A DNA stretch of 64,000 bases from a plasmid. Positions 1 to 29,153 of this stretch are shown here, one piece after another (within the stretch, counting starts at the first letter, position 1; each line of letters opens with the position of its first letter). The notes below the pieces were generated by a model, which was given only the letters and a program-made list of their open reading frames with translations, was not told the DNA's origin and searched no databases. Made by a program: the position numbers and the translations under genes. The stretch is taken from sequence record NZ_CP023526.1. The stretch is one strand, 5' to 3'.

Positions 1-868
1 ATTTTCTTCGTGAACCAGGCCAGCGCGCTGCTGTCGAAGAAGACACCGTAGTAATTGGTGTGTCGCTCAACCACTCGCCTCAACCAGCAGCCTGTTTCGT
101 CCGGTTCAGCGCCTGCGGCTGAAACGGCGATAAGTGAAGCGGGCACAATAAGCGGGACAACTGCCGTAGTTACGCTTTGTGGTATAGAGATCCACGATAG
201 CTGTATGGGTCGAGTGCGAGCTGAGGCAGCAGAGCATATGACCCACTATCAGACCACAGAAAAAACCTCCGTTATTCACCACTACCGGGGCGGGATCCTG
301 GAAGATGACAGGCTGTTGCGTCGGAGATTGCCCCTGATACTGGGGCTTAACCGCAGGCAACCGCATCGCGGCAGTTTGGGTACCATCGCCACACGCACGC
401 AAAGTAGCAGGCAGGCAACAACCCCGCCCGCGATCGACAAGTATTTTTTGTTTATTGGGTTTACCGGCTTACAGAGACAGAAGAGGCCCACCAAAGTGAG
501 CCTTTAGATTTTGACAAGTCAGGTTGTCGCAGTGCCGGGTGCCTCCCGGTGAGCCTTAGGCTGGTCAGGCCGAACTCGCGCAGCTTATGCTCTGGACATT
601 ATTCACTTCCAACCAATTACGCCCCGCCGCACAGGGGGATCCACTGCGACAAAACAACCCTACTATCGACAGTAAAATATCGGCAAGGCTTAAACAGAAA
701 ATTCGTGTTCACTGTCAAAAAAAGCCCTCAGAGATGAAACTGCGGGCACAAGTCGAAACATTGATACAGGAAAGCACGCCCCCGACACGCAACTGTACAG
801 GGCACTTTTAATTATGGATGCGTACTGATAATTACCAGTGGCTATGTTAATTAATTGTTATTTGCACA

Positions 869-950
869 ACGCATTCGGCTGAGCACTAGCCCCCACGCTT
901 AGAACTTGCCCGCACAAAGTGTTTTGGGGTAGTGCTCATGCGTATGCATT
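869..950. repeat. ~80-bp palindromic MITE/REP-like element, copy 1 (divergent interior; inserted in the left arm only)
   Basis: Ends cattcggctgagcact...agtgctcatgcgtatgcat form an imperfect hairpin. The matching position in the right arm lacks the element. Confidence 0.6.
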
Positions 951-1317
951 CTTTATTATTTAAGGTTTTTCATCCAGGGCAAGAAATGGCAGGTCTGCAC
1001 GGAATTCAATCAATATACTATCGTACATCATCACCCCGGTCAGAAATGAAAGAATAAGTATCAAAGTAATCAACCATTTACGCAATTGATTTTCTCAATT
1101 ATTTGCCTCATCGTAATAGTGTGTATCACGGAAAGCAATTACCTGTGAATAGAGGTAATAATATATTATGCAGCCACCAACAAAGCATCCGGCGATCACT
1201 GCAATCATCAGCATTTTTTTCAAAGACATCACAACGCTCGCATTTGTTCCATAAAGTAACAGCGTAGGCGATTCTATATAAACGTATTATCAATCTGAAT
1301 TAGAGAATAACTGATAA

Positions 1318-1396
1318 GCATTCGGCTGAGCACTGCTACCTGGCGACAGGTCTGATACGGAGATACCAGTTAACCACTCAGTGCTCATGCGAATGC
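1318..1396. repeat. ~80-bp palindromic MITE/REP-like element, copy 2
   Basis: gcattcggctgagcactg...cagtgctcatgcgaatgc. The interior is near-identical, in inverted orientation, to copy 3. Confidence 0.65.
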
Positions 1397-1619
1397 TTTA
1401 AAAAATGCCCGGCCATTTCAGGACCGGGTAGCAAAGGTGTTTTGTTTACTCGTGCTATTTTTATATGCCATTCGGTCACTTCACTGACCTGATAGCTGTT
1501 ATCTGATGCCCAGGAAAGCTGCGGGTCTGATCCCCTGCCGTCAACGGTATCGCTTTTTAAAGTCCCGCTCGTCCGGACTATCGCACTGGTGGCTGCCCCT
1601 AATAATAACAGGTCTACAC

Positions 1620-1685
1620 TCGCCTGCCGCACTGGGCTAGCGTTGAACCAGTTGCTTTACCTACTGAGCTAAGCCGGCTTTGTTT
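1620..1685 (-). pseudogene. Decayed tRNA-Arg copy with the anticodon arm deleted (mirror copy of the tRNA-Arg at 9666-9742)
   Basis: Reverse complement GCTTAGCTCAGTAGGTAAAGC...CTGGTTCAACGCTAGCCCAGTGC aligns to the D-arm, T-arm and acceptor stem of the intact tRNA-Arg. About 23 nt spanning the anticodon stem-loop is missing. Confidence 0.5.
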
Positions 1686-1758
1686 GGACCGCCACCGGGG
1701 CCTCGAACCTCGTACTACAACACCATGGTTGTCGCTCTTCCTGATGAGCTAGTGGCGG
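1686..1758 (-). pseudogene. tRNA-like sequence with a 6-nt anticodon loop (probable tRNA pseudogene)
   Basis: The 7-bp acceptor stem (CCGCCAC/GTGGCGG), D-arm GCTC/GAGC, T-loop TTCGAGG and a 3' CCA can be drawn. The anticodon arm ACAAC-CATGGT-GTTGT has a non-canonical loop. Confidence 0.4.
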
Positions 1759-1759
1759 T

Positions 1760-1834
1760 TGGTGGTCCTTGTTGGATTTGAACCAACGACGAGCGATTAT
1801 GAGTCGCGCGCTCCAACCGCTGAGCTAAAGGACC
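1760..1834 (-). tRNA. tRNA with anticodon CAU (tRNA-Ile2 lysidine-type, ileX-like, or tRNA-Met)
   Basis: Reverse complement GGTCCTTTAGCTCAGCGGTTGGAGCGCGCGACTCATAATCGCTCGTCGTTGGTTCAAATCCAACAAGGACCACCA folds as a cloverleaf. The anticodon loop is CTCATAA. It resembles E. coli ileX. Confidence 0.8.
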
Positions 1835-2315
1835 GAGTCACGAATCTTAGGGCAATTATTTACCCATGTAAACTATGCTGATATTTCCGAATATTACGAA
1901 GTAATTGAGAAGCAAACCACCACAAAAACGCCTCACTTCATGGTTAATGAATGCAGAGGTGCTCTGCACAGAGTGCACTACTACAGATTTTACAGATAAT
2001 AAAAATCTCACCATTGATAGCAGAATTTCGATTTTTAAGTTATGTATTGTAGCAACCGCACTTAGCAGTGTTAAATTGGGTTTGGTAATTAACCCCCCCT
2101 TTCAGTTTAGGCGGAAGGATATATACTCATCAACATTCCCTGCCCGTTTTGATGTTGATATCAAAGCCTTGAATAAATCCCTCAGCGGCCAGGAGGCAAA
2201 CAGAAACATGATTGTGTGATATGCCCACTTTCATTGCCATAGCGCGTAACGTCATATTTTCGATGTGGTGTCATTCCAGAAGCACACAGATATTCATCGT
2301 GCTTAATGAGAAAGA

Positions 2316-3257
2316 TCATGATTCCAAAACAGTGCGAATCTGTTGAGAAAGCGTATCCAGCAGAGCAAATCGCCGGCGGTATTCCGCCCGCTTTTTACTG
2401 GAAATGGTGCTGATATCCTTACATGCAGGAATCTGTGGCAGAATATAATATCCTTCCTGACAACAGACAGCACCTATGCTTTTCCAGAAAGCATCATAAT
2501 CGGCATGTACCATCGCTGACTGCTTTTTGTAACGAGCAAGGCTATAAACATGTGTATCACCTCCAACCGCCAGGATCTTTTCGATCTGCATACACTGTGC
2601 GAAATGACAAACAGCATCCAGTACCATGCGTTTGGGAAACACGCCAAAGCAGGCTTTGGTTGCATGCCGAATTACCTCATGCGGGGTAGTGCGGCAGCTT
2701 CCCTGCAAACCACCAATGAATAACGTCCTTTTCCCCTGATGTCGGCAAAGAGTGAAGGTAATTTTCGCCAGGATCCTGGCCTGATCGTCACGCATAACCA
2801 TTGTACAATCCCCCTCTTTATCAAGATTCACCTCACTCTTCAGGCTGACAGAGAAACGAATATTATCTTTCCCCTCAAGCTCGGCCAGAGGTAAACCATC
2901 GTGGGACAACCAGCTTGATATCTGCCTGCGGGTAAGCTGGCTATACATGGTATTGTAGTGAAACTGCACGGCACGAAGTTTCTGCTTGCGCGTAAATTTG
3001 AGTGTCAGATAAGCGCGATTGAGGCGTACAGGCAAACGTGGCTGCATGGCCAGAAGTCTGTACATATAGGGACCATGTATGATTACATCCAGTAGTTGCC
3101 ATGTGAACAACGGGGCCAGAATCCCTCGCCATAAGAACTTTAAACGATAATTACCCCGGTTCCACATTTCCCCAGGACGGTATTCACCCGTCACCAGACT
3201 TATAAAGAGATTCCAGACAGAAACAGGATATGCCCCACTCAACGCATGATCAGTCAT
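2316..3257 (-). CDS. Putative VirK/YbjX-like (DUF535) family protein
   Basis: ORF of about 313 aa starting at MTDHALSG. Motifs GNYRLKFLWRG and HGPYMYRLL are recalled from the DUF535/VirK family. The call rests on recalled similarity only. Confidence 0.4.
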   Translation of the reverse strand: MTDHALSGAYPVSVWNLFISLVTGEYRPGEMWNRGNYRLKFLWRGILAPLFTWQLLDVIIHGPYMYRLLAMQPRLPVRLNRAYLTLKFTRKQKLRAVQFHYNTMYSQLTRRQISSWLSHDGLPLAELEGKDNIRFSVSLKSEVNLDKEGDCTMVMRDDQARILAKITFTLCRHQGKRTLFIGGLQGSCRTTPHEVIRHATKACFGVFPKRMVLDAVCHFAQCMQIEKILAVGGDTHVYSLARYKKQSAMVHADYDAFWKSIGAVCCQEGYYILPQIPACKDISTISSKKRAEYRRRFALLDTLSQQIRTVLES

Positions 3258-3589
3258 GACTATCACCCACAGAAATAAGATATATGTTATTTGAACATAT
3301 AAAGTATTAACACTTCTTAAATCAGATAAGAAAATTAAAAAAATGGGCGCTGACATCAATGCAAGATATAAAAATAAATATTAATCAAGGTTAAGACCAA
3401 AAAAATAAGATAATTCTTTAGGTCTTCTCAAAAAGATAACAACGATAAGGCTCTGTCGGAAATATCCCAGAAAATAGAAGTGTGCCTTATTATGGATACA
3501 ATTAGGCTGTTAATGAATAAAGCTGCTTTCGGGCTGGGGTATCTCCTGCGTTTTCTATCAGTTTTTTAAGCATTCAGGACAACTCGATT

Positions 3590-3715
3590 CCCGAAAATGA
3601 CGCTTTCGTATCTTCGAATGATTTAAACCCGAGCCCCGACTTCGTGATGAGTTTAATCTCCCGATCGTCTTGTTCTACGAGGTTATTCAGGTATTTTATC
3701 CGCCTCACCCCAATC
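3590..3715 (-). pseudogene. IS6-family (IS26-like) transposase C-terminal fragment
   Basis: Minus-strand translation resembles the IS26 C-terminus (...EQDDREIK...LGFKSF...). Confidence 0.5.
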
Positions 3716-3729
3716 AACAAAGGCTAGAG

Positions 3730-3900
3730 CCCACAGGCAGGCATCCGGTTAACTCATATTTTCTTAATTATTTCAGCAGGTAATATCAGAAACACCTTTA
3801 CCTGACGAAGAGTGTTTAATAATGGAACAACGATAGTTCTTCAGCCAAAAAACAGCATGTCGCCAATTGGCAGGCCAGCGATCTTACCCGTCAGCAGGAC
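3730..3900 (+). pseudogene. Degenerate IS66-family end (IR-like gcatccggttaactcatattttcttaattatttcagc) with a decayed tnpA start
   Basis: About 75 % identical to the reverse complement of the intact IS66 right end plus tnpA start at 6940-7040. The tnpA reading frame is broken by a stop after MEQR. Confidence 0.5.
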
Positions 3901-4056
3901 TACAACTCAACGAGTTACATCAGGAACGTAAACATGCCATTGAGGGGATCTGCAACATGGTGGGATCTCCAAATCAACGTTATATAAAACTATCAGAAGT
4001 ACCGCTATGTCTATAGTGAGGATACCGGGTCAGCTCTGCGCTTTCTCTATGCCGTA

Positions 4057-4320
4057 ATGGCACCTAAACCTGATCCTGGGCACTCGCTACAGGGAAGATC
4101 TAAAATGCTTTCCCTCGACAACGGCCCGGCGGCCAAAAGCCAGGTTTTCCAGGACATCATGCTATCGCTGGGCGTGGACTGGTTGACTCATTTACCCGCA
4201 GGGAAAAATGGTGAACAGGTGACAGCTTGCCCGACAGGGAAGGTGGGGCATCCTTTTCGAATCGTCAAAGAAGCCCACGAAACGTTGTACCATTTCCACA
4301 AACAAGAAACCGAACAGTAG
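4057..4320 (+). pseudogene. DDE transposase/integrase catalytic-core fragment (rve-like)
   Basis: LSLDNGPAAKSQVF...LGV...KNGEQV resembles the DDE-core region of IS481/IS3-type integrases. The ORF is truncated at both ends. Confidence 0.4.
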
Positions 4321-4646
4321 GTCAATGAGTGGCTGTTACGCTATCTGCTTCACTACAATGACCAGCCACACCGTTCACAGTCTCACCCACGTCTGGAAGA
4401 CAGGCTGACCCGCTTCCCTCCGGGTAAGCATCCGGTGAACTCATATTGACAGATCCGATGGGAGCAGCCTCAGGTTTCCCCGGCAACCGTTCGTCAGGTG
4501 GTGAAGTACTGAGTGAGGTATTCCACGCGTGTGGCGCTGGAACTGAGTCAGGTAAACTATGGCGATGAAGCCTTGTGGGAAGCGGGCTTCCGCTATTTAC
4601 GGACTCAGGCGCGCAAGTCCTTAGTGCGGATATCACAAGCTTTCTG

Positions 4647-6221
4647 TCAGACTCCTTCGCGCACGAAGACGAACCCCGGCAGCGGCAGCAACGCGTCCAG
4701 GTCCTCTTCCGGCCAGCCCGGTAACCGTTGCAGAACGTTCGTCAGCCAGGCATGTGGATCAAGACCGTTCATCTTCGCTGTTTCCAGTAGACTCATGATT
4801 TTCGCGGCACGCTCACCCGCTGCAACCGAACCGGCAAAGAGCCAGCTGGAGCGTCCCATCACCACAGATCTGATGGCCCTCTCACAGCGATTATTGTCCA
4901 GGGGTAACGCACCATCCTCCAGGAAGCGACTGAGGGTCACCCGGCGTTTTAGTGCATACGCGATCGCTTTACCCAGCGCGGAGCTATCCGGGCACGCATC
5001 TTTCTGCTGCTCCAGCCAGTGCCACAACTTGTCCAGCACGGGGCGGGCATAACGCTGTCGCCATTGACGGATCTTTTCCACCGGCCGGTGTCGGACCTTC
5101 TTTTCCAGCCGGTATAACCCGGCGATCTGTCTGACCGCCATCGCGGCGCGAGGATCCTTGCTCGCCTTATAAAGGTCGGCAAAGTTTCTACGGGCATGTG
5201 CCCGGCAACCTGTTAGCGCGATCCCTCTGTTTTGCCCGGCCAGGGTTTCATAGGCCGGATATCCGTCGACCACAAGATTTCCGGCCCAGTCCTTCAGGTA
5301 TGCCGCCGGGTACACGCTACTCCTACCGGGCTGACTGTCGAAGCAGACGACAGCAGGGCCGCTTTTTTCACCGCTGACGTAAGCCCACAGGTAGCCGGCA
5401 CGGGCTTTGCCGCCCTTTTTCGTATCCAGGATTTGCAGGGGCGTTTCATCGGCATGCAGCACATCGCATGTCAGCAGCATCCAATGCAGTGATTCCGCCA
5501 GTGGCCTCAGCGCCCCCCCCGCACGGCCGATCATATCGGCCATCGTGCTGACGGGCAGATGGATATCCGAGCGGGCCAGCACCGACTGCTGGCGGTACAG
5601 GGGCATATGGTCGCAGTGCTTGCTGATCACCACCTGGGCAATGAGTGACGCCTCTGCCACACCTTTCGGGATAATGTTTGCAGGCATATCACCGCTGACC
5701 ACCCGCTGGCAGCAGATACAGCCATACTGCGGGCGAACGTACCGGTTAACCACGACGCGAGCCGGGATATATTCCAGTTTTTCGCTCACCTCATCGCGGA
5801 TGTGACGCAGTTCGCCCTGGCAGTCAGGGCAGCTTTCGGTTGAGGCCGGTTCGATAGTTTTTGTGACACGCGGGAGATGAGCCGGGAGCGGTTTTCGTGC
5901 CGGACGTTCCGGGGCTGATTGTTCTTCGGCAGGGAGCAGCGTGTCCAGTTGCGCTTCAACTGCGGCGATATCCGCATCCATATCCTCTTCGAACAGGGAG
6001 CGTTGCATACCGGCCAGTGTTTCGCCCTTTTTACCGAACCGTTGCTGGCGGGCCAGTTTCAGTGCTTCTTCCAGGAGCTGTATACGTTGCAGGAGGCTGG
6101 CATTTTTCAGGCAAAGCTTTTCATTTTCTTCATTCTCAGCCATCACTTTTTGCACCATGGCAAGTGCCAGAGTGCGAAGTTCCTCGATGTCACTGGTGGT
6201 GGTGAGAACAGAGATATCCAT
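4647..6221 (-). CDS. tnpC: IS66 TnpC transposase
   Basis: 525-aa ORF from MDISVLTTT. It has the zinc-ribbon cysteines (CPDCQG...CICC) and the DDE transposase region typical of IS66 TnpC. Confidence 0.85.
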   Translation of the reverse strand: MDISVLTTTSDIEELRTLALAMVQKVMAENEENEKLCLKNASLLQRIQLLEEALKLARQQRFGKKGETLAGMQRSLFEEDMDADIAAVEAQLDTLLPAEEQSAPERPARKPLPAHLPRVTKTIEPASTESCPDCQGELRHIRDEVSEKLEYIPARVVVNRYVRPQYGCICCQRVVSGDMPANIIPKGVAEASLIAQVVISKHCDHMPLYRQQSVLARSDIHLPVSTMADMIGRAGGALRPLAESLHWMLLTCDVLHADETPLQILDTKKGGKARAGYLWAYVSGEKSGPAVVCFDSQPGRSSVYPAAYLKDWAGNLVVDGYPAYETLAGQNRGIALTGCRAHARRNFADLYKASKDPRAAMAVRQIAGLYRLEKKVRHRPVEKIRQWRQRYARPVLDKLWHWLEQQKDACPDSSALGKAIAYALKRRVTLSRFLEDGALPLDNNRCERAIRSVVMGRSSWLFAGSVAAGERAAKIMSLLETAKMNGLDPHAWLTNVLQRLPGWPEEDLDALLPLPGFVFVREGV

Positions 6222-6263
6222 GCGGGTAATTATACCGCACATGGTACGGATAATCATTATTGT

Positions 6264-6644
6264 TCATAAGGTTATGTTGGTTTTTGGTGCAGATTCAGCT
6301 GCGTCCCGGGAGATCCACGTTGTGAGGTCGTGGCCTTTTACCTGTTGCCAGTCAACGCCGCTGACAAGCCAGCTGAACTCATCAGGTGTGAGGGACCAGG
6401 CGGCCTCATTTGCCCGGGGCCAGCGGAAGTGACCCTTGTGCAGGCGGCGAACGCACAGCCAGACGCCGTGCTTATCCCAGCGCAGCACCTTGATGCGCGA
6501 ACGGGCTTTATTGGTGAAGACGAAGGCAGCCCCTTCATGCCACGACGCATTGAGTTCATCCTGGACATACTGTGTCAGGGTGTCGATCCCCCGTCCCATA
6601 TCAACGGGTTTTACAGCGAGAAAGACATTCTCAGGCGTCAGCAT
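6264..6644 (-). CDS. tnpB: IS66 TnpB (orf2)
   Basis: IS66 orf2-like sequence (...VFTNKARSRIKVLRWDKHGVWLCVRRLHKGHFRWP...) starting at MLTPENV. Confidence 0.8.
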   Translation of the reverse strand: MLTPENVFLAVKPVDMGRGIDTLTQYVQDELNASWHEGAAFVFTNKARSRIKVLRWDKHGVWLCVRRLHKGHFRWPRANEAAWSLTPDEFSWLVSGVDWQQVKGHDLTTWISRDAAESAPKTNITL

Positions 6645-6960
6645 ATTTGAGAGCCCTGAAGACATCGGTGAGTTGCGAAGGATGGCAGCACATGCGTATC
6701 CCGCCGGGGAGAAAGAGGGTTACAGGCTCATTTACTCCAGGTGAAAAAGGTTCTGCAGGCGGCGTAGCTTCAGTGATATGTACGGGCAGCACAGCGGGTT
6801 TGCTGGCGCGTCGTTCAGCCCTGGCGACATCCTGAGGCCATTCACGAAAGGATGTGAAGGGAATATCGTTGAGTTCACAATACTGATGACGGGTAAGACC
6901 GCTGGCCCGCCAGCTGGCGACATGTTGTTTTTTCTGCTCAATGAACCATCGTTGTTTCAT
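6631..6960 (-). CDS. tnpA: IS66 TnpA (orf1)
   Basis: 109-aa ORF at the tnpA position of the IS66 element, with a 14-nt overlap onto tnpB. Confidence 0.8.
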   Translation of the reverse strand: MKQRWFIEQKKQHVASWRASGLTRHQYCELNDIPFTSFREWPQDVARAERRASKPAVLPVHITEATPPAEPFSPGVNEPVTLFLPGGIRMCCHPSQLTDVFRALKYADA

Positions 6961-7037
6961 CAGTAAACATCCTTCGTCAGTTAAAGATGCTGCTGATATT
7001 ACCCGCTGAAATAATTAAGAAAATATGAGTTCACCGG

Positions 7038-7226
7038 ATGCTTACGGTAGAGCAGGATCATCGGGGCATTAAGCGCATCACGAAATCCACGCTCGGATTT
7101 AAATCATTTGCATCTGCGGAAGCGACAATCGCGGGAGTTGAACTTCATCGGATGCTTAAAAAAGGACAGCTGGAAAACACAGGAGATACTCCAGCCTGGA
7201 AACAGTTCCTTTCGTTAGCAGCCTAA
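7038..7226 (+). pseudogene. IS6-family transposase C-terminal fragment
   Basis: MLTVEQDHRGIKRITKSTLGFKSFASAEATIAGVELHRMLKKGQL matches the IS26 Tnp C-terminus. Confidence 0.6.
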
Positions 7227-7307
7227 TCATGTCCAGAATGAGGCACATTCCGATTTTTTAGAATATTTTCGACAAAGCCTGTTACCATCCTTTAATTTAT
7301 AAAGCAT

Positions 7308-7811
7308 TTACAACGTGGGGGGCCAATTGCCAATCATTACATGAAGCCTTTCCATTTCTTGAGCTAAAAGATAGTTTTCAGCAGGATGCCGGGATAATCC
7401 AAAATCAATTAAGTTAAATTGTCGGAGAGATTCATCAAAAAGAATGTTTGTTGATTTAAGATCGCCGTGATAAATATTCATATTGTGAATATTCTGAACC
7501 GTTGTAATTAACTGATTTCTGTCTTGTAAGGATAGCGTTGATTTATCATAAAATTGTAAACTCTCACCTGGAATTTTCCTCATCGTCATCGTCGTTCTGT
7601 TGATCATTTCAGCAGAGTCATTGCCATGCACCATTCTAAATATTCTAACTTCATCTTCCACACCAAACATAGCACCTATTCCCCGAAGCTCCTTACGAAC
7701 ATATCCATTTCCGATATCATAAACAATCCCGCCAGCCCCGACACCTAATACATTCTCGCCCACACTGCTATTACTGCTATTACGACGAAAAACCTTATTC
7801 AGCAGCACCAT
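7308..7811 (-). CDS. Minimal protein-kinase-fold protein, OspG/NleH-like (candidate effector-type kinase)
   Basis: Glycine-rich loop GVGAGGIVY, lysine in YVRKEL, catalytic-loop-like YHGDLKSTNILF, and DFG motif IDFGLS in only 167 aa. The N-terminus abuts an IS6 fragment. Confidence 0.5.
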   Translation of the reverse strand: MVLLNKVFRRNSSNSSVGENVLGVGAGGIVYDIGNGYVRKELRGIGAMFGVEDEVRIFRMVHGNDSAEMINRTTMTMRKIPGESLQFYDKSTLSLQDRNQLITTVQNIHNMNIYHGDLKSTNILFDESLRQFNLIDFGLSRHPAENYLLAQEMERLHVMIGNWPPTL

Positions 7812-7820
7812 GCGGATGAC

Positions 7821-8078
7821 TCACCAGCGCAGGGTGGCATGGTCAACGATGATGCCCCGGTCTGCCATTATCTCTTCCAGATTGCGCAGGCTCAGGGAAT
7901 ATGCCAGGTACCAGCGGACACACTGTGCGAGGATATCAATGGGATAATGCAGCCGTTTAAAGACTTTTCTGATGAGTGACACACAGAGCTCATTATGAAT
8001 TTTCGCCATGATATTTTGGTCTGACTCCTTAATGCGACATAACCCCAGCGTCGTTCTGCTATGTTTGATTTTTTTCAA
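7821..8078 (-). pseudogene. IS6-family transposase N-terminal fragment
   Basis: ...YPIDILAQCVRWYLAYSLSLRNLEEIMADRGIIVDHATLRW matches the IS26 Tnp N-terminus. Confidence 0.6.
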
Positions 8079-8212
8079 TAAGCAATGAGTATTTTTACGA
8101 AAGATGAACGCTCGCTTTTGTTTGACATGTGATACGTTGAAATACTTGATGACGAGAAATATTCTTACGTCATTTAGGTATTATCTATAATGATTATTAA
8201 TTGAGGTGACTT

Positions 8213-8509
8213 ATGGAAAACTCCATTCAAATATTAGATGCTGCAATTTCAAAGCTCAGACTTATCCGAACCAGTGGTGAATGTTTTGACTGCGTGGTTA
8301 ATATCTCAGGTAAAAATGAGAAAACAGAAAAAATAGAAAGTCATTTTGCTTCAGCATTTAGTATTTCTTCACAGGGACAATCTGAATTATTCAATCTTCT
8401 TTACACTGCATCTCAGGAGGGGAAAAAACTTGACTCTGTTTTACTCAGAGCAGAAGTGAGTTCTCCGGATGTCTGGGAGCTGGATGAGTTCGTTATTAAG
8501 GGGAAATAA
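8213..8509 (+). CDS. Hypothetical protein (98 aa, AT-rich)
   Basis: Isolated ORF with an upstream AT-rich promoter-like region and low-GC codon usage. No recognisable motif. Confidence 0.35.
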   Translation: MENSIQILDAAISKLRLIRTSGECFDCVVNISGKNEKTEKIESHFASAFSISSQGQSELFNLLYTASQEGKKLDSVLLRAEVSSPDVWELDEFVIKGK

Positions 8510-8989
8510 GGGTCCTGTTGAGAGGGGGGTGCATGGATAGCCAAATCATTATCATCAAGGTCAGTCCATTCTGACATGCGTTAACAATGCCGCATAAACA
8601 CAACGTCAGAAAGCGTCACCGCATTCCCAAAGCAAAACGCCCCTTCACCAACCGGCCTCAATATGAAGCCGGTCTTAAACAGCGCCATAGCCTTACTCTC
8701 TGGATTACACCCGGGACTATTGCACAATGGAAGGCGCTGTCCGCACCTTGCCATTCAGGGCTGCCTGATGCTGCGTACCACCTTCCGGATAACCAGGAGA
8801 GCGATAAATCTGCACTCTGGAAGTCTGCCATTCCTGGCTCTGGCTGCAGGCTGCTCAAATAAGAGAGCAATATCGGGGGAAACGTTTTTGCTTCTGCGCG
8901 ATGGCCAGCCAGCGGGTGAAAAACAGATTTTCAGCCCAGGGCATGCCGGCCCCACCCTTCTGACGCGTCAGGTGAGAGAGCGCTGCGAT

Positions 8990-9420
8990 GGCGCTCTCCG
9001 GTGACTCTGCGTCCATGCGTCACTTCTCAAGGCCCCTCTCTTCCAGTTTCTGTGCAATTGTCATAAAAATGTCCTCATGCTGCGGTGGCCGGCGGGTCAG
9101 CACCTGCAGGAATACTTCAGGTCTGGCTGTATCCCCTGTCTGCAGCATCCAGTTCATCAGGGCGACCAGATGCTCTGTCAGCCCGGTATGCGGATCAAAA
9201 CCATTAATCTTCGCTGTGTTTCCAGCAGGCTTATGATTTTGGCTGCACGCTCACCCGCCACAATCCGACCTGCGAAGAGCCTGTTGGAGCGCCTGATAAC
9301 CGCAGATCTGATGACCCTCTCGCAGAGATTATTGCCCAGCGCTGAGCTGTCCGGGCACCCGTTTTTCTGCAACTTCAGTCATTGCCACAGCCTGCCCGGC
9401 ATAGGCCCCACATAACGCTG
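8990..9420 (-). pseudogene. IS66 TnpC C-terminal remnant
   Basis: Minus-strand ...DSSALGNNLCERVIRSAVIRRSNRLFAGRIVAGERAAKIISLLET aligns with the C-terminus of the intact TnpC at 4647-6221. Confidence 0.6.
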
Positions 9421-9665
9421 CCTTCACTGACGGATCTTTCCCACTGGCCAGTGTCAGATTTGAAAAAGCACAAAATTTTTAGATTTGCTTGTGGTCAGCT
9501 ACAGGGCGATACTCATCCACGGGCAGCAGGTACCGGGCCGTTTTAGTTTACATGCGGTGGCTAAAGCGGCTTAAAAGCGGTCATTGAATCAATCTTCCCT
9601 GGACTCCAATCCGATTGAAAGTGAATGCTCGGTATCTGCTGACCTGCACAGCAAACTGCTTCTGT

Positions 9666-9742
9666 GCACTGTTAGCTCAGTTGGACAGAGCGTTGCCCTC
9701 CGGAGGCAAAGGTCGCTGGTTCAATTCCAGCACAGTGCACCA
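9666..9742 (+). tRNA. tRNA-Arg (anticodon CCG)
   Basis: Cloverleaf folds from GCACTGTTAGCTCAGTTGGACAGAGCGTTGCCCTCCGGAGGCAAAGGTCGCTGGTTCAATTCCAGCACAGTGCACCA. Anticodon loop CTCCGGA, T-arm GCTGG/CCAGC, 3' CCA. Confidence 0.85.
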
Positions 9743-10042
9743 GGAGTGTGTAGACCTGTTTTTGTTGGGGACAGCTCTACCGGCTCGATAGTTCGGGTTC
9801 GAAAGACTAAAAAGATACGCAGATAGCGGGGAGCCAGACCCGGACCTTTACGGCCATTGTATAATGACTTTTACCTCAGCTTTCCACCACCAAGATTGAG
9901 CTGATGATACAGGTTAAATTCCTGCTGGATGATCCGGATAGCAGCTATGAGGTCTGCGATGAGACCGAATGACGTATAAAAATAGCATGAATAAGCAATT
10001 TCCTTTTGCGACCCGGCACAGAAACGGCCGGACCTTTTTAAG

Positions 10043-10123
10043 ACATTCGCATGAGCACTGAGTGGTTAACTGATATCTCCGTATCAGACCTGTCGCCATG
10101 CAACAGTGCTCAGCCGAATGTCT
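10043..10123. repeat. ~80-bp palindromic MITE/REP-like element, copy 3 (inverted relative to copy 2)
   Basis: gacattcgcatgagcactg...cagtgctcagccgaatgtc. Its reverse complement matches 1318-1396. Confidence 0.65.
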
Positions 10124-10782
10124 ACATGGCCGATTTTTATTCTCTGATGCAAATTGATGTGGCGTTTATGTAAAACCACCTACGCTTCATTTTCTAGAAA
10201 AATACGAGCGCGGTAATGATCTTGAAAAAATGCTGATAATTGCGATAAATTTCGGGGACTTTATTAGTAATTATATAATATAGCATTATTCACAGATGAT
10301 TTTTCTTAGTGACTCGCATTTCTACGAAAAGGTGGCTGAGTAGGGTGAATAATTGCGCAAATGGTCGCTTATTCTGCTACTGATTCATAACCTGGCTGAT
10401 GATGTACGAACGCATGTTGATGCAATTCTTCGCAGACCTGCCATTTTCCCGGGGGATAAGCCTTAAATGATTGAAAGCGTATTCATAATTTAAAACGTCC
10501 TGTACGGTCGTGTCAGTACTGCGCTTTCCAGTATTGATGCCTGCAGTCTTACATTTGAATTTTTTCGATAGCGAACACGAATTTATCCTCCCGGAATTGC
10601 TCTAATTCCGCATAAAGAATATGGTTATATTGTCGCAGTGAATCCCCCTGTGCGGCGGGGCAAAATGGTTAATAGCTCCATGTGAATTAGCAGTGCGAGT
10701 CCGGTCTGACCAGCCTAAGACTCACCGGGAGGCACCCGGCACTGTGGCTACCTTACTTAATGACTGGCTTGTCAAAATCTCA

Positions 10783-10812
10783 AGGCTCACTTAAGTGAGC
10801 CTTTTTTGTCTC
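10783..10812 (+). terminator. Rho-independent terminator-like hairpin (aaggctcacttaagtgagcc + T-run)
   Basis: A perfect GC-containing stem followed by ttttttgt. A weaker mirrored copy lies at about 495-520. Confidence 0.5.
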
Positions 10813-11395
10813 TGTTGCCCCATTGGACAAAAAATACCTGTATGTAAGCATTTGGGAAGTCACTGAACGGTAAACGCCGTTAAGCAGTCAATTTAAATAT
10901 TCATTAATTACACTTATTCATTGAACTCTCTCAGCCCTCTCACTGACGGATTCCGACACCGTAAAGGAAAAAATCCCTTGCATATTGAGGTACTACGCCA
11001 GAATCCCAGATTTTTCCGTCACTCCAGTTTCAGCCCCGTAACCAGCGCATCCAGGTCAATAATTTCATTGTTGATCTGGAAGGTGGAATGCCCGGTCAAT
11101 ACAATGTGCGGCCAGACCACCGGTGATATCTTGATCAACGCCTCAATTCCCTTTCATTACCTTCGGCTTCCAGTCGTTCCGGTATTCGCGGCAGGATCGC
11201 CGTGTTGTAATAAATGGGAGCATAAAAAAGCCAGGGCATCGATGTTTTACCATATGGCAGGTACCCCTGAAGCATCTGTCACCCGCAGGTCTGCGTGCGA
11301 CTGCCCCAAGGATTTCTATGCTCTTTTACGTTTTTACCCGTTTCCGGGGCCGAATAACCGTGCCCCGCGCGTGCATCAGTGGGGGTCTGACCGGG

Positions 11396-12238
11396 CTACT
11401 TCTTAACAGGGTCGGTCAGACCAGCCGCTTTATTGATGACCATCTGCAGCACTGCCTGGTCAGTCATGCCTGGGATCACCGTGATCGTCTCTGCAGTAGC
11501 GCCGATGGCTGGCATCACCACCAGGCCCGGCGTACCGGTGAGCCCGATGTCCGTGGCCAGCTGCCCGGTGAGGGTCAGCTCAGCCTGCACGTCCCTGTCC
11601 TTCGCTATCGCCGACGGGGCGATCTTCATGGCCCCGGCCGCAGTGCGGATATCATTCTCCGTCAGCGCCCCCTCGTTATGCCCGGTGGCATACAGTTCAT
11701 TATGGTACGCGAGGTACGCCTCTGATCCCTTCTGCTGCCAGATTTTCAGGCCTGTCTCTGCCGCCAGGCGGGAGGCAGGCCATCTGTCGCCGAAAATGGG
11801 CCACTCACGGAACACAAAGCGCACCTGCGGGTTGGCTTTCATCAGCTTCGTCAGATCCGGGGCCAGATGGCTGCAGTAAACACACTGGTAGTCGAAGAAG
11901 AGCGTCACCACCACCTTCGCATCCGCAGGACCGTAGGACGGCGCATGCGGGTCATGCAGCAGTTCAGACTGGTACGCCAGCGCCCCTTCCGTCATCGCCT
12001 TCACCGCCGCCGCTTCCTGACGGGCCTGCAAGGTCTCACTGACCTTTACCAACACCTCCGGGTGAGCAATCAGCCAGTCAGCCGCCACCGCTCCGATCCG
12101 GGCCTCTTGTTCCGGGCTGAACGGCGAGGCCGGTTTTGCCACCTCTGCGTGGGAAAAATGGCTGATTCCCTGGGCAACCACCCCACCCAGGACGCCGCTC
12201 AGCAGAATGGCTGCGGCAATGTTTGATTTTTTAAGCAT
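11396..12238 (-). CDS. DsbA/DsbC-like thioredoxin-fold disulfide oxidoreductase of conjugative-element type
   Basis: Signal peptide, CxxC motif (CVYC), and a thioredoxin-fold layout. GC-rich (about 62 %) block with other ICE-like hypothetical proteins. Confidence 0.6.
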   Translation of the reverse strand: MLKKSNIAAAILLSGVLGGVVAQGISHFSHAEVAKPASPFSPEQEARIGAVAADWLIAHPEVLVKVSETLQARQEAAAVKAMTEGALAYQSELLHDPHAPSYGPADAKVVVTLFFDYQCVYCSHLAPDLTKLMKANPQVRFVFREWPIFGDRWPASRLAAETGLKIWQQKGSEAYLAYHNELYATGHNEGALTENDIRTAAGAMKIAPSAIAKDRDVQAELTLTGQLATDIGLTGTPGLVVMPAIGATAETITVIPGMTDQAVLQMVINKAAGLTDPVKK

Positions 12239-12307
12239 GATGTTTCCTGTAAATAAATAATAATGTGATACCTCTGCCGGGAACCCCGGTGGCCCTGTGG
12301 GCCTTGA

Positions 12308-12604
12308 TTATTCGCGGGGCAACAGGCGGGATGACACCGACTTGCACCACTGAAAATCCTTCGTCACCGCCTCAGGCTCGGCGATATCCTTTATTTTACG
12401 GGGACGCCCGCGCGGTACTTTTCTGTATTTCGCCTGTTTCACCGCCTGCGCATGATGCGCGGCGGCTTCCTCCGCCAACTGTCGTCTCCGGGCAGATGAG
12501 AGAACATGGCCCAGCGTTCTTTCCTCCTGCGTTATCAGCGCGTTCAGCAAAAAACTTTCGTACTCCGTCAGGCCTTCCGTCAGCTGGTGATACGTGTCTG
12601 TCAT
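12308..12604 (-). CDS. Hypothetical protein of the conjugative-element remnant (98 aa)
   Basis: Start MTDTYHQ with RBS gggagaggg. The longer upstream extension of the six-frame ORF overlaps the neighbouring gene. Confidence 0.4.
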   Translation of the reverse strand: MTDTYHQLTEGLTEYESFLLNALITQEERTLGHVLSSARRRQLAEEAAAHHAQAVKQAKYRKVPRGRPRKIKDIAEPEAVTKDFQWCKSVSSRLLPRE

Positions 12605-12824
12605 GACTTTCCCTCTCCCGTAATTTCCCGTGGCATGCTGCTGGCAGCGTGCCACTCTGGCTTCGGCGTACGCCCGCCCGCCTGCCCGCGGGGCCTGTTT
12701 CGCCACCCAGGACCAGACCCGGCGGCAGGCTTCTACCGTCCGGCCAGTTTTAGCCTCACCGCCACCAGGTCCCGCCCGCAGCGGCTGCTTATCTTCGCAC
12801 CTACCGTCAAAAGAAAGTTCCGAT

Positions 12825-13589
12825 TCAGTCTTCAAGTGATTTCTCCTTCACGATGTCCCGTTCAGCCTGGTTCATCCGGGCTGCGGACGGCGGGTCTGTC
12901 TCCGTCCCGCGCTCCTCCAGCTGCCGTTCAGCCTGTTTGTCCTGTGACAGGCGGGAGACCGAAGCTATATCCCGGTCCAGGCGCTGCTGCGCCGTCCTCT
13001 GCTCCCGTGAAAGGATGGCCGCCAGGGCTGCCACCTCGGTATCCTGGCCACCCATCTCATCCTTCAGCAGAGTAAACACCCTGTCCAACGTCGCCGGATC
13101 GGTCTTCTCCGTTTGCGGCATATTTTCTATCAGGAGGGCCGCCAGTTTCTCTGCCTCCCGCTTCGCCACCGCTTCCAGGTCCTGAAGCACCGGGATAACC
13201 GCCGTTTCGGGCGTGCTCGCCCTCACGGCCTGAGCTGACACTGCTGCCTCGTCGATAAGGTTATCCGCCCCGGTGAGCCGACTAAGGTTGTGCGGCAGGT
13301 CATCCCCTTCCAGACGCACAATCACCCCGCTGGCCGGATAGTCGCGGGCAAGTTCCAGCCCCGCAGGCAGGCTGTCGGCCACCCGCACCTCGCCGTTGCG
13401 GCTCTGCTGAATGCCGGCAAAGCGCGCATCCTCCCGACCGGTGACCCGGTGCGCCCCGGAGAACGCCTGTCCGCCGTGCTCATCCTGGGTGAGACTGAAT
13501 ATCACCATCCCCGCCCGGTTGCCGTTGGTGTCCCACAGCGCAAACCCCACGCCCGGCTCTGGCTGACGACGGGTGGCAGGGACAAACAC
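12825..13589 (-). CDS. Hypothetical conjugative-element protein (254 aa, coiled-coil-rich C-terminus)
   Basis: Long ORF in the GC-rich block, co-oriented with its neighbours. Confidence 0.45.
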   Translation of the reverse strand: MFVPATRRQPEPGVGFALWDTNGNRAGMVIFSLTQDEHGGQAFSGAHRVTGREDARFAGIQQSRNGEVRVADSLPAGLELARDYPASGVIVRLEGDDLPHNLSRLTGADNLIDEAAVSAQAVRASTPETAVIPVLQDLEAVAKREAEKLAALLIENMPQTEKTDPATLDRVFTLLKDEMGGQDTEVAALAAILSREQRTAQQRLDRDIASVSRLSQDKQAERQLEERGTETDPPSAARMNQAERDIVKEKSLED

Positions 13590-27672: not shown

Positions 27673-28077
27673 ATGTCAGAAGCATTGAAAATTCTTAACA
27701 ACATTCGTACGCTGCGCGCTCAGGCGCGTGAACTTCCTCTTGAAGCGCTGGAAGAAATGCTGGAGAAGCTCACCATCGTGGTCAGTGAGCGCCAGGAAGA
27801 AGAGGCATCCCAGCGTAAAGAACTCGAAGATAAACAGGCGAAGATTGACGCTTTTCGAGCCAAATTACTGGAAGAGGGAATTGATCCAAGCGAGTTGCTC
27901 TCCTCTCTGAAGGTCGTCTCAACAAAAACCAAGGCACCCCGTGAACCCCGCCCGGCAAAGTATAAGTATATCGATGAGAATGGGAGCGAAAAAACCTGGA
28001 CCGGTCAGGGCCGTACACCAAAAGCGATTGCCAGCGAGCTTGAAAAAGGTAAAACGCTCGACGATTTCGCCCTGTGA
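27673..28077 (+). CDS. H-NS family nucleoid-associated protein (horizontally acquired paralog, Sfh/Hfp-like)
   Basis: [20 protein letters not shown]...TWTGQGRTP...LDDF is near-identical in layout to H-NS. The upstream promoter region is AT-rich. Confidence 0.85.
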
Positions 28078-29077: not shown

Positions 29078-29153
29078 TGGTGGCCCCTGCTGGGTTTGAA
29101 CCAGCGACCAAGCGATTATGAGTCGCTCGCTCTAACCACTGAGCTAAAGGGCC
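29078..29153 (-). tRNA. tRNA-Ile2 (anticodon CAU; ileX/ileY-like)
   Basis: Reverse complement GGCCCTTTAGCTCAGTGGTTAGAGCGAGCGACTCATAATCGCTTGGTCGCTGGTTCAAACCCAGCAGGGGCCACCA is near-identical to E. coli ileX and gives a perfect cloverleaf. Confidence 0.85.

Follow-up and report, generated by a model that had tools for sequence, protein, structure and literature searches.

The first 11 kb of a 64,000-nucleotide (nt) stretch of the plasmid record NZ_CP023526.1 (the window, hereafter), from a strain of Cedecea neteri, raise the question of how two tRNA-bearing segments of about 1.2 kb, lying in opposite orientation, came to bracket about 8 kb of DNA rich in insertion sequences (IS). A preliminary description of the window had taken the two segments for a mirror-image duplication of a tRNA-Arg(CCG) locus, or for two ancient paralogous loci brought into inverted apposition, and had proposed that the DNA between them could be inverted by homologous recombination. 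Our analysis favours another answer, to which we assign a probability of roughly 80%: the two arms are what is left of the late-operon leaders of two distinct lambdoid prophages, were inherited independently, and represent neither a duplication nor a switch.

In the C. neteri assembly GCA_900461005.1, the window falls on contig UAVU01000009.1. The mirror-image pair in it is real. Comparison of the window with itself reveals an extended anti-diagonal, far above chance, between positions 437–1690 and 9660–10841. Blastn of positions 1–2000 against the whole window returns three collinear inverted matches (Table 1), a repeat scan places nine collinear inverted pairs (I4–I9, I11, I13 and I15) on one anti-diagonal, running from 437–459/10819–10841 on the outer side to 1592–1651/9716–9775 on the inner side, and MAFFT aligns the left and right arms from end to end. 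The similarity is thus not limited to a palindrome of about 80 nt, which corresponds to the strongest of the pairs (I4, 1319–1404/10035–10120; 86 nt, 93% identity). However, the identity of 75–85% given previously is too high. Blocks at 86–93% occur within the arms, but overall identity is about 72–78%, and a five-sequence alignment gives 71.9% over 1078 aligned columns. The outer terminator-like hairpin and the palindrome in both arms, as well as the intact right tRNA-Arg, are present as described. On the inner side, the relics reach further than the limits drawn for the arms, on the left to a pseudogene of the lambdoid antiterminator Q at 2291 and on the right from about 9460.

The arms look non-coding, yet they are ordered. 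The left arm is read on the minus strand and the right arm on the plus strand, and each consists, in this direction, of one or more tRNA genes, an intrinsic terminator, an imperfect hairpin of about 80 nt, two small open reading frames (ORF-A and ORF-B) and a gene for the small RNA (sRNA) STnc100 with its terminator. The left arm contains an additional insertion of about 115 nt (about 836–950) with a second copy of the hairpin, which is not in the right arm, and the right arm contains a 78-nt segment without a counterpart in the left. Both STnc100 genes were identified by covariance-model search with Rfam; they match the model RF02076 over its full length with scores above its gathering score of 47 bits, and are about 79% identical to one another. 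The outer terminator-like hairpin of the preliminary description is the terminator of STnc100 in both arms. In a terminator scan, the right copy has a 9-bp stem (10782–10803) followed by TTTTTTG and is a good intrinsic terminator, while the 8-bp stem of the left copy (503–484) is followed by an interrupted, degenerate U-tract, CTTCTGTCTC. STnc100 has been located 75 nt downstream of stx2 (PMC12370729), and a second study relates it to PasD and uses it to mark phage origin (bioRxiv 10.64898/2026.05.13.724894).

The same unit is present at full length in an intact lambdoid prophage of Cedecea sp. NFIX57 (IMG/VR UViG_2671180115_000008; L019 in our contig numbering), where it lies between Q (PF03589, 5.5e-49) and a P21-type holin and lysozyme. 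The order in this prophage is Q, late promoter and leader, tRNA-Arg(CCG), terminator, hairpin, ORF-A, ORF-B, STnc100, holin and lysozyme. Its unit, with the tRNA-Arg(CCG), the terminator, both hairpin copies, the two ORFs and STnc100, is 79.6% identical to the left arm over 1001 nt and 78–83% identical to the right arm, and identity to both arms lies at 73–83%. It differs in that Q, holin and lysozyme are kept, and in an insert between tRNA-Arg(CCG) and the hairpin (2585–2805 of L019), which holds an extra partial STnc100 (72 bits, model positions 29–154) and a weak tRNA-like match. Fels-1 holds three STnc100-type copies, and the sRNA appears to be prone to tandem duplication. In another intact lambdoid prophage, contig L023, a Q matching PF06530 (9.6e-41) is followed by a tRNA remnant, the unit with STnc100 and a lambda-type holin.

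This architecture is known from the Shiga toxin (Stx) phages. The late leader of phages 933W and 2851 consists of Q, pR', ileZ-argN-argO, stx2AB, STnc100 and the S/R/Rz lysis genes; in the Stx2c phage 2851, ileZ (tRNA-Ile), argN and argO (both tRNA-Arg) are followed by stx2A, stx2B, STnc100 (158 bits) and S. The loci studied here share with them the order and orientation of the elements, with a tRNA(CAU) first, an aberrant second tRNA and an Arg tRNA, then about 0.9–1.3 kb of cargo, and then STnc100 with its terminator. However, the cargo consists of two tiny membrane-protein ORFs and hairpins in place of stx2AB, the Arg tRNA reads CGG (anticodon CCG) instead of AGA or CGA, Q either survives as a pseudogene or is missing, and lysis genes do not follow. 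Both arms likewise end in full-length matches to the STnc100/PasD family as known from Fels-1 of Salmonella LT2, where the STnc100 copies sit between Q and holin, although here the host is Cedecea and the two copies are diverged relics without a phage. In a blastn search of a collection of phage genomes, the right arm gave matches to the STnc100 of Fels-1 and to unrelated tRNAs only, and all matches of the left arm fell in its tRNAs. At the sensitivity of blastn, deposited phages therefore lack the middle of the unit. Against complete E. coli genomes, only a 56-nt tRNA-Arg segment of the arms was matched.

Upstream of the tRNAs, the two arms differ in the type of Q or leader. Just upstream of the left tRNAs, and abutting the DUF535/VirK gene, lies a C-terminal remnant of Q that is 50% identical over 42 amino acids to the Q of L023 (tblastn, E = 3e-9). 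The right arm has no Q. Instead, it has a leader of about 200 nt that is homologous to the spacer between Q and the tRNA in L019, with a conserved promoter-like site, TTGCTT-17-GATACT, at 9485–9513, and is truncated upstream by a relic of an IS66 tnpC (9177–9458). The left and right leaders are unrelated to each other.

The right tRNA-Arg(CCG) is intact, as had been claimed, with a canonical cloverleaf, a 7-nt anticodon loop and a score above threshold in ARAGORN and Rfam. With the tRNA-Arg(CCG) that follows Q in L019 it shares 93% identity, compared with only 86–88% over 56 nt for E. coli tRNA-Arg. The left copy had been regarded as a tRNA-Arg without its anticodon arm, but alignment with the orthologous contigs L028 and L031 reveals a fusion of neighbouring tRNA pseudogenes through a deletion of about 99 nt. 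These orthologues have four tRNA-like genes: the CAU gene, a gene whose anticodon loop measures 6 nt, and one gene each of Thr-like and Arg-like type. ARAGORN calls no tRNA at 1625–1690, and the fused sequence has no tRNA fold. The gene with the 6-nt loop is unchanged in L028, L031 and L034 and is probably a pseudogene; genes with a 6-nt loop that resemble it are also found in other lambdoid contigs, including L015 and L020. A promoter-like site (1872–1844) lies by the tRNA(CAU). By alignment, the left array is collinear with the arrays of phages 2851 (ileZ-argN-argO) and 689R5, and it matches 585 phage records. A third tRNA(CAU) of the window (29078–29153, minus strand), near a gene for an H-NS-like protein (27673–28077), is 84% identical to that of the left arm, with the match including 15 nt upstream, and may be another ileZ-type tRNA borne by a phage or an island.

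ORF-A and ORF-B, between the hairpin and STnc100, show conservation at the protein level among the left arm, L019, L023 and L028. Differences in ORF-A between the left arm and L019 number 5, 2 and 16 at codon positions 1, 2 and 3, respectively, and the substitutions in ORF-B spare codon position 2. The left ORF-A is identical to the database protein P0001. Neither ORF belongs to a family in Pfam or PHROGs, and two homology searches of 5.8 billion proteins found homologues of ORF-A in only three clusters, from C. neteri, Cedecea sp. NFIX57 and one metagenome. Both ORFs are pseudogenes in the right arm (Table 1).

The collinearity of the arms over about 1.2 kb could also have arisen by inverted segmental duplication of one tRNA-Arg/STnc100 locus, followed by long divergence, indels and IS insertions, and the mirror symmetry is increased by a second, concentric inverted repeat inside the arms (3448–3897/6883–7280). 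We consider this origin unlikely. The sequences directly upstream of the tRNAs are non-homologous and their Q or leader types differ, which is not expected of copies made in place. In the ORF segment, the left and right arms are 70.2% identical to each other, while they are 78.2% and 79.3% identical, respectively, to L019, and in a quartet analysis of this segment, 993 of 1000 bootstraps pair the left arm with L023 and the right arm with L019; together with the non-homologous inner flanks, this argues that the arms are not sister sequences. Indels are shared in a mosaic manner, as the 78-nt segment is common to the right arm and L019 and the insertion of about 115 nt with the second hairpin is common to the left arm and L019. 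Furthermore, orthologues of each arm occur on their own in other Cedecea genomes, with no partner arm nearby. The left block (VirK, Q remnant, tRNAs and unit) is 95–98% identical in six other contigs (L028 and L030–L034), and no right arm lies within 10 kb of it in the 369-kb contig L028. The right block (kinase, leader, pseudo-tRNA-Arg, hairpin and STnc100) is collinear in C. neteri NBRC 105707 (L003), where it lies amid genes of a conjugative element. A divergence of about 28% would also make the duplication far older than the surrounding IS debris. An in-place duplication, as proposed earlier, is thus unsupported. The other proposal, of two paralogous loci in inverted apposition, comes close to the evidence, except that the loci are relics of prophage late leaders and not chromosomal tRNA-Arg loci.

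Certain observations, however, weigh against an origin from two prophages. Quartets built on the STnc100 segment, or on all columns, do not resolve the grouping or slightly favour left with right, and thus do not reject a duplication. This signal could reflect old shared history or gene conversion. A quartet of the whole unit is not decisive since the segment of L023 that follows the tRNA is not homologous, and for this reason we relied on the ORF segment and the flanks. Only four or five full-unit homologues were found, which makes for a thin phylogeny. The larger mirror symmetry created by the concentric repeat is only partly explained. Finally, no remnant of a holin, lysozyme or spanin gene was found next to either arm by tblastn with the corresponding proteins (holins, lysozymes and Rz) of L019, L023, Fels-1 and 689R5, so that only the module, the Q remnant and the leader speak for a prophage origin. 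On the same ground, the loci are orphaned relics and not prophages. Given the behaviour of the STnc100 segment, the real picture is one of old shared ancestry inside the phage gene pool, combined with recombination.

A further explanation takes the arms as substrates of homologous recombination, with the 8-kb segment flipping as a switch of genome plasticity. The segment does lie between inverted homologous stretches of about 1.2 kb, and repeats of prophages and IS elements are known to mediate inversions in enterobacteria; like the inverted prophage, IS and rrn repeats behind such events, the arms are inverted homologous segments of mobile origin that bracket a segment. However, the documented enterobacterial inversions involve long, near-identical repeats, while identity between the arms is about 72% and the longest uninterrupted matches measure 29, 25, 24 and 20 nt, with only three reaching 24 nt. 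A divergence of about 28% lowers RecA-dependent recombination by orders of magnitude. Given that the longest run is 29 nt, inversion by this route is improbable, and the invertibility proposed previously is weak. The two available assemblies of the strain (NCBI and Logan) have the segment in one and the same orientation. Nor does the interior resemble a switch of the Hin/Gin/Fim type, as Pfam reveals DUF535, IS66 tnpA, tnpB and tnpC and a kinase fragment, and no invertase gene, in the interval. As judged from these sequences, functional or frequent inversion would be unlikely, and we regard a switch as very improbable. Slightly less probable still is that the tRNA-Arg was a chromosomal attachment site, with the arms as duplications flanking it after integration of an island or an integrative and conjugative element. 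tRNA genes are common sites of integration, and the right arm is directly followed by relics of a conjugative element (TraA, TraI_C and a DsbA-like gene), but integration gives short direct repeats and not inverted ones of 1.2 kb, so that its earlier rejection was justified. The likeness of the tRNA-Arg(CCG) to that of the phage, and not of E. coli, also argues against it, and no integrase was seen adjacent. The least probable of these explanations is a large composite mobile element, with the 8-kb interior as its load and the arms as its inverted terminal repeats. Inverted repeats flanking IS-rich DNA would be in keeping with it; in an active element, however, such repeats would be near-identical, and here they occur separately with different neighbours in other genomes, with neither a target-site duplication nor a matching transposase.

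If the arms are relics of two prophages, their history may be reconstructed by analogy with phage lambda. In the live phage, RNA polymerase modified by Q would read through the internal terminators and express the module together with the lysis genes. In the C. neteri strain, two versions of the module, with differing Q or leader and tRNA sets, would have come to lie head to head around an IS66-riddled stretch, as a by-product of separate acquisitions and IS-mediated scrambling. With Q inactivated on the left and lost by deletion on the right, and with the lysis genes gone, residual function would be limited to expression from local promoters. Decay has been complementary: the left arm has kept the tRNA(CAU) and both small ORFs and has lost the Arg and Thr tRNAs, while the right arm has kept the tRNA-Arg(CCG) and the better-terminated STnc100 and has lost both small ORFs. 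A CGG-decoding tRNA-Arg, two paralogous base-pairing sRNAs of the STnc100 type, a tRNA(CAU) that probably decodes AUA and two small membrane peptides are candidates for such residual function.

The main value of this analysis is a correction, since an apparent 1.2-kb mirror duplication of a tRNA-Arg locus resolves into a standard module of lambdoid phages, present in two decayed copies. The analysis extends the Q-tRNA-cargo-STnc100 architecture, known from Stx phages and Fels-1, to the phages of Cedecea. It also shows that orphaned pieces of such a module (the CGG-decoding tRNA, STnc100-type sRNAs and small peptides) can outlast the phage in islands, which is how prophage sRNAs and tRNAs turn into host genes, and the complementary decay of the two relics illustrates how redundancy is resolved. 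For phage RNA biology, the hairpin family and the two small ORFs provide modest leads.

Table 1. Coordinates of the features of the two arms, with the evidence or remarks for each (paired ranges are left/right).
Feature	Position	Strand	Evidence or remark
Inverted match	955–1503/10471–9937		71.7% over 558 nt, E = 5.5e-75 (blastn)
Inverted match	437–662/10841–10620		74.5%, E = 1.3e-38 (blastn)
Inverted match	1573–1651/9796–9716		76.5%, E = 2e-10 (blastn)
Conserved tail 3' of the left STnc100 terminator, outer limit of similarity	437–472	-	I15 83%, blastn
Left STnc100 sRNA gene	473–677	-	RF02076, 94.0 bits, model positions 1–206
Imperfect hairpin, second left copy, other inner sequence	872–950	-	In the insertion of ~115 nt common to L019 and L028
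ORF-B, 41 amino acids, intact	960–1085	-	TTG start, one hydrophobic helix
ORF-A, 44 amino acids, intact	1095–1229	-	One hydrophobic helix, lipobox-like IAGC
Imperfect hairpin, left copy 1	1319–1404	-	Fold -38.9 kcal/mol, z = -4.1; 93% to right copy
Intrinsic-terminator-like stem and T-run between tRNA segment and hairpin	1408–1428	-	Conserved in right arm and L019
Chimeric tRNA pseudogene	1625–1690	-	5' Thr-like part and 3' Arg-like part, ~99-nt deletion
tRNA-like gene, 6-nt anticodon loop	1685–1758	-	Good cloverleaf, encoded CCA; position of argN in Stx phages
tRNA(CAU), homologue of phage ileZ	1760–1834	-	65.1 bits; ~85% identical to ileZ
Lambdoid antiterminator Q, C-terminal remnant, PF06530 type	2166–2291	-	In-frame stop; tblastn with L023 Q
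Right-arm leader, homologous to the L019 Q-to-tRNA intergenic region	9460–9665	+	81.5% over 287 nt to L019 3163–2879
tRNA-Arg(CCG), intact, phage-type	9666–9742	+	Encoded CCA; ARAGORN; Rfam tRNA 69.9 bits
Terminator-like stem homologous to 1408–1428	10012–10031	+	Alignment; no call by the terminator scan
Imperfect hairpin, right copy	10035–10120	+	Fold -37.5 kcal/mol, z = -4.6
ORF-A pseudogene	10216–10343	+	ATG out of frame by 1-nt loss in A-run; in-frame stop; 6-nt deletion
ORF-B pseudogene	10353–10466	+	8-nt and 4-nt deletions scramble the hydrophobic helix
Right STnc100 sRNA gene	10610–10813	+	RF02076, 106.9 bits, model positions 1–206
Conserved tail, outer limit of similarity	10814–10841	+	I15, blastn

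The hairpin is not confined to the two arms. We collected 17 distinct copies from Cedecea loci and lambdoid contigs of IMG/VR, and the family is represented in the window and in L003, L009, L011, L014–L016, L019, L021–L023, L026 and L035–L039. The copies have an outer stem in common, CAUUCG-CA-UGAGCACUG ... CAGUGCUCA-GC-CGAAUG, inside which several mutually unrelated, self-complementary inner sequences are interchangeable. The 17 copies were gathered through exact words from the stem and hence form an ascertained sample, which offers a lead rather than proof. Among them, 94% of stem cells pair, compensatory changes occur at the three terminal pairs, and eleven of the one-sided changes, of which almost all are of this kind, are G-U wobbles on the strand of the late transcript. 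In lambdoid late regions such hairpins often lie directly 3' of an intrinsic terminator. Rfam returned no match for the hairpin. A 24-mer from its loop had no match in IMG/VR, and one match among 185,579 species genomes, that of C. neteri NBRC 105707. All three copies in the window lie within the arms, which removes a dispersed miniature inverted-repeat transposable element from consideration. It is possible, though less likely than not, that the hairpin represents a new kind of structured RNA element in the late transcript, which travels with a Cedecea-restricted pair of genes for small membrane peptides at the position of stx in Stx phages. Such an element may serve, for example, as a processing site of the RNase III type or as a stabiliser that separates the tRNA, the peptide mRNA and the sRNA.

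The DNA between the arms contains a complete IS66-family element (4424–7045) with tnpA, tnpB, a tnpC of 536 amino acids and perfect 24-nt inverted ends; its tnpC is split in two in the NCBI assembly. The absence of an 8-bp target duplication at its ends (CCCTCCGG versus GGTAGAGC) suggests recombination between IS copies rather than simple insertion. The two copies of the concentric inverted repeat described above are 72–88% identical, and in both of them a fragment of an IS6/IS240-like transposase is joined to the right end of an IS66-family element. An exact-protein look-up of the VirK protein with its long TTG start gave no match, and the kinase protein was matched only in the same strain.

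On the outer side of the left arm, genes of the YegR and Rpn types are present. To the right of the right arm, from 11396–13589 to about 15800, lie a DsbA/ScsC-like gene, DUF3811, a C-terminal fragment of TraI (TraI_C), TraA pilin and a LuxR/GerE regulator, which are relics of a conjugative element. G+C content climbs to 58–66% at 11–14 kb. The segment 9023–9175 is 94% identical to DNA about 2 kb past the left edge of the window, in an Rpn/Transposase_31 region (13216–13368 of L027). As a further dispersed repeat, it may account for the end of the short-read contig L029 near 8931.

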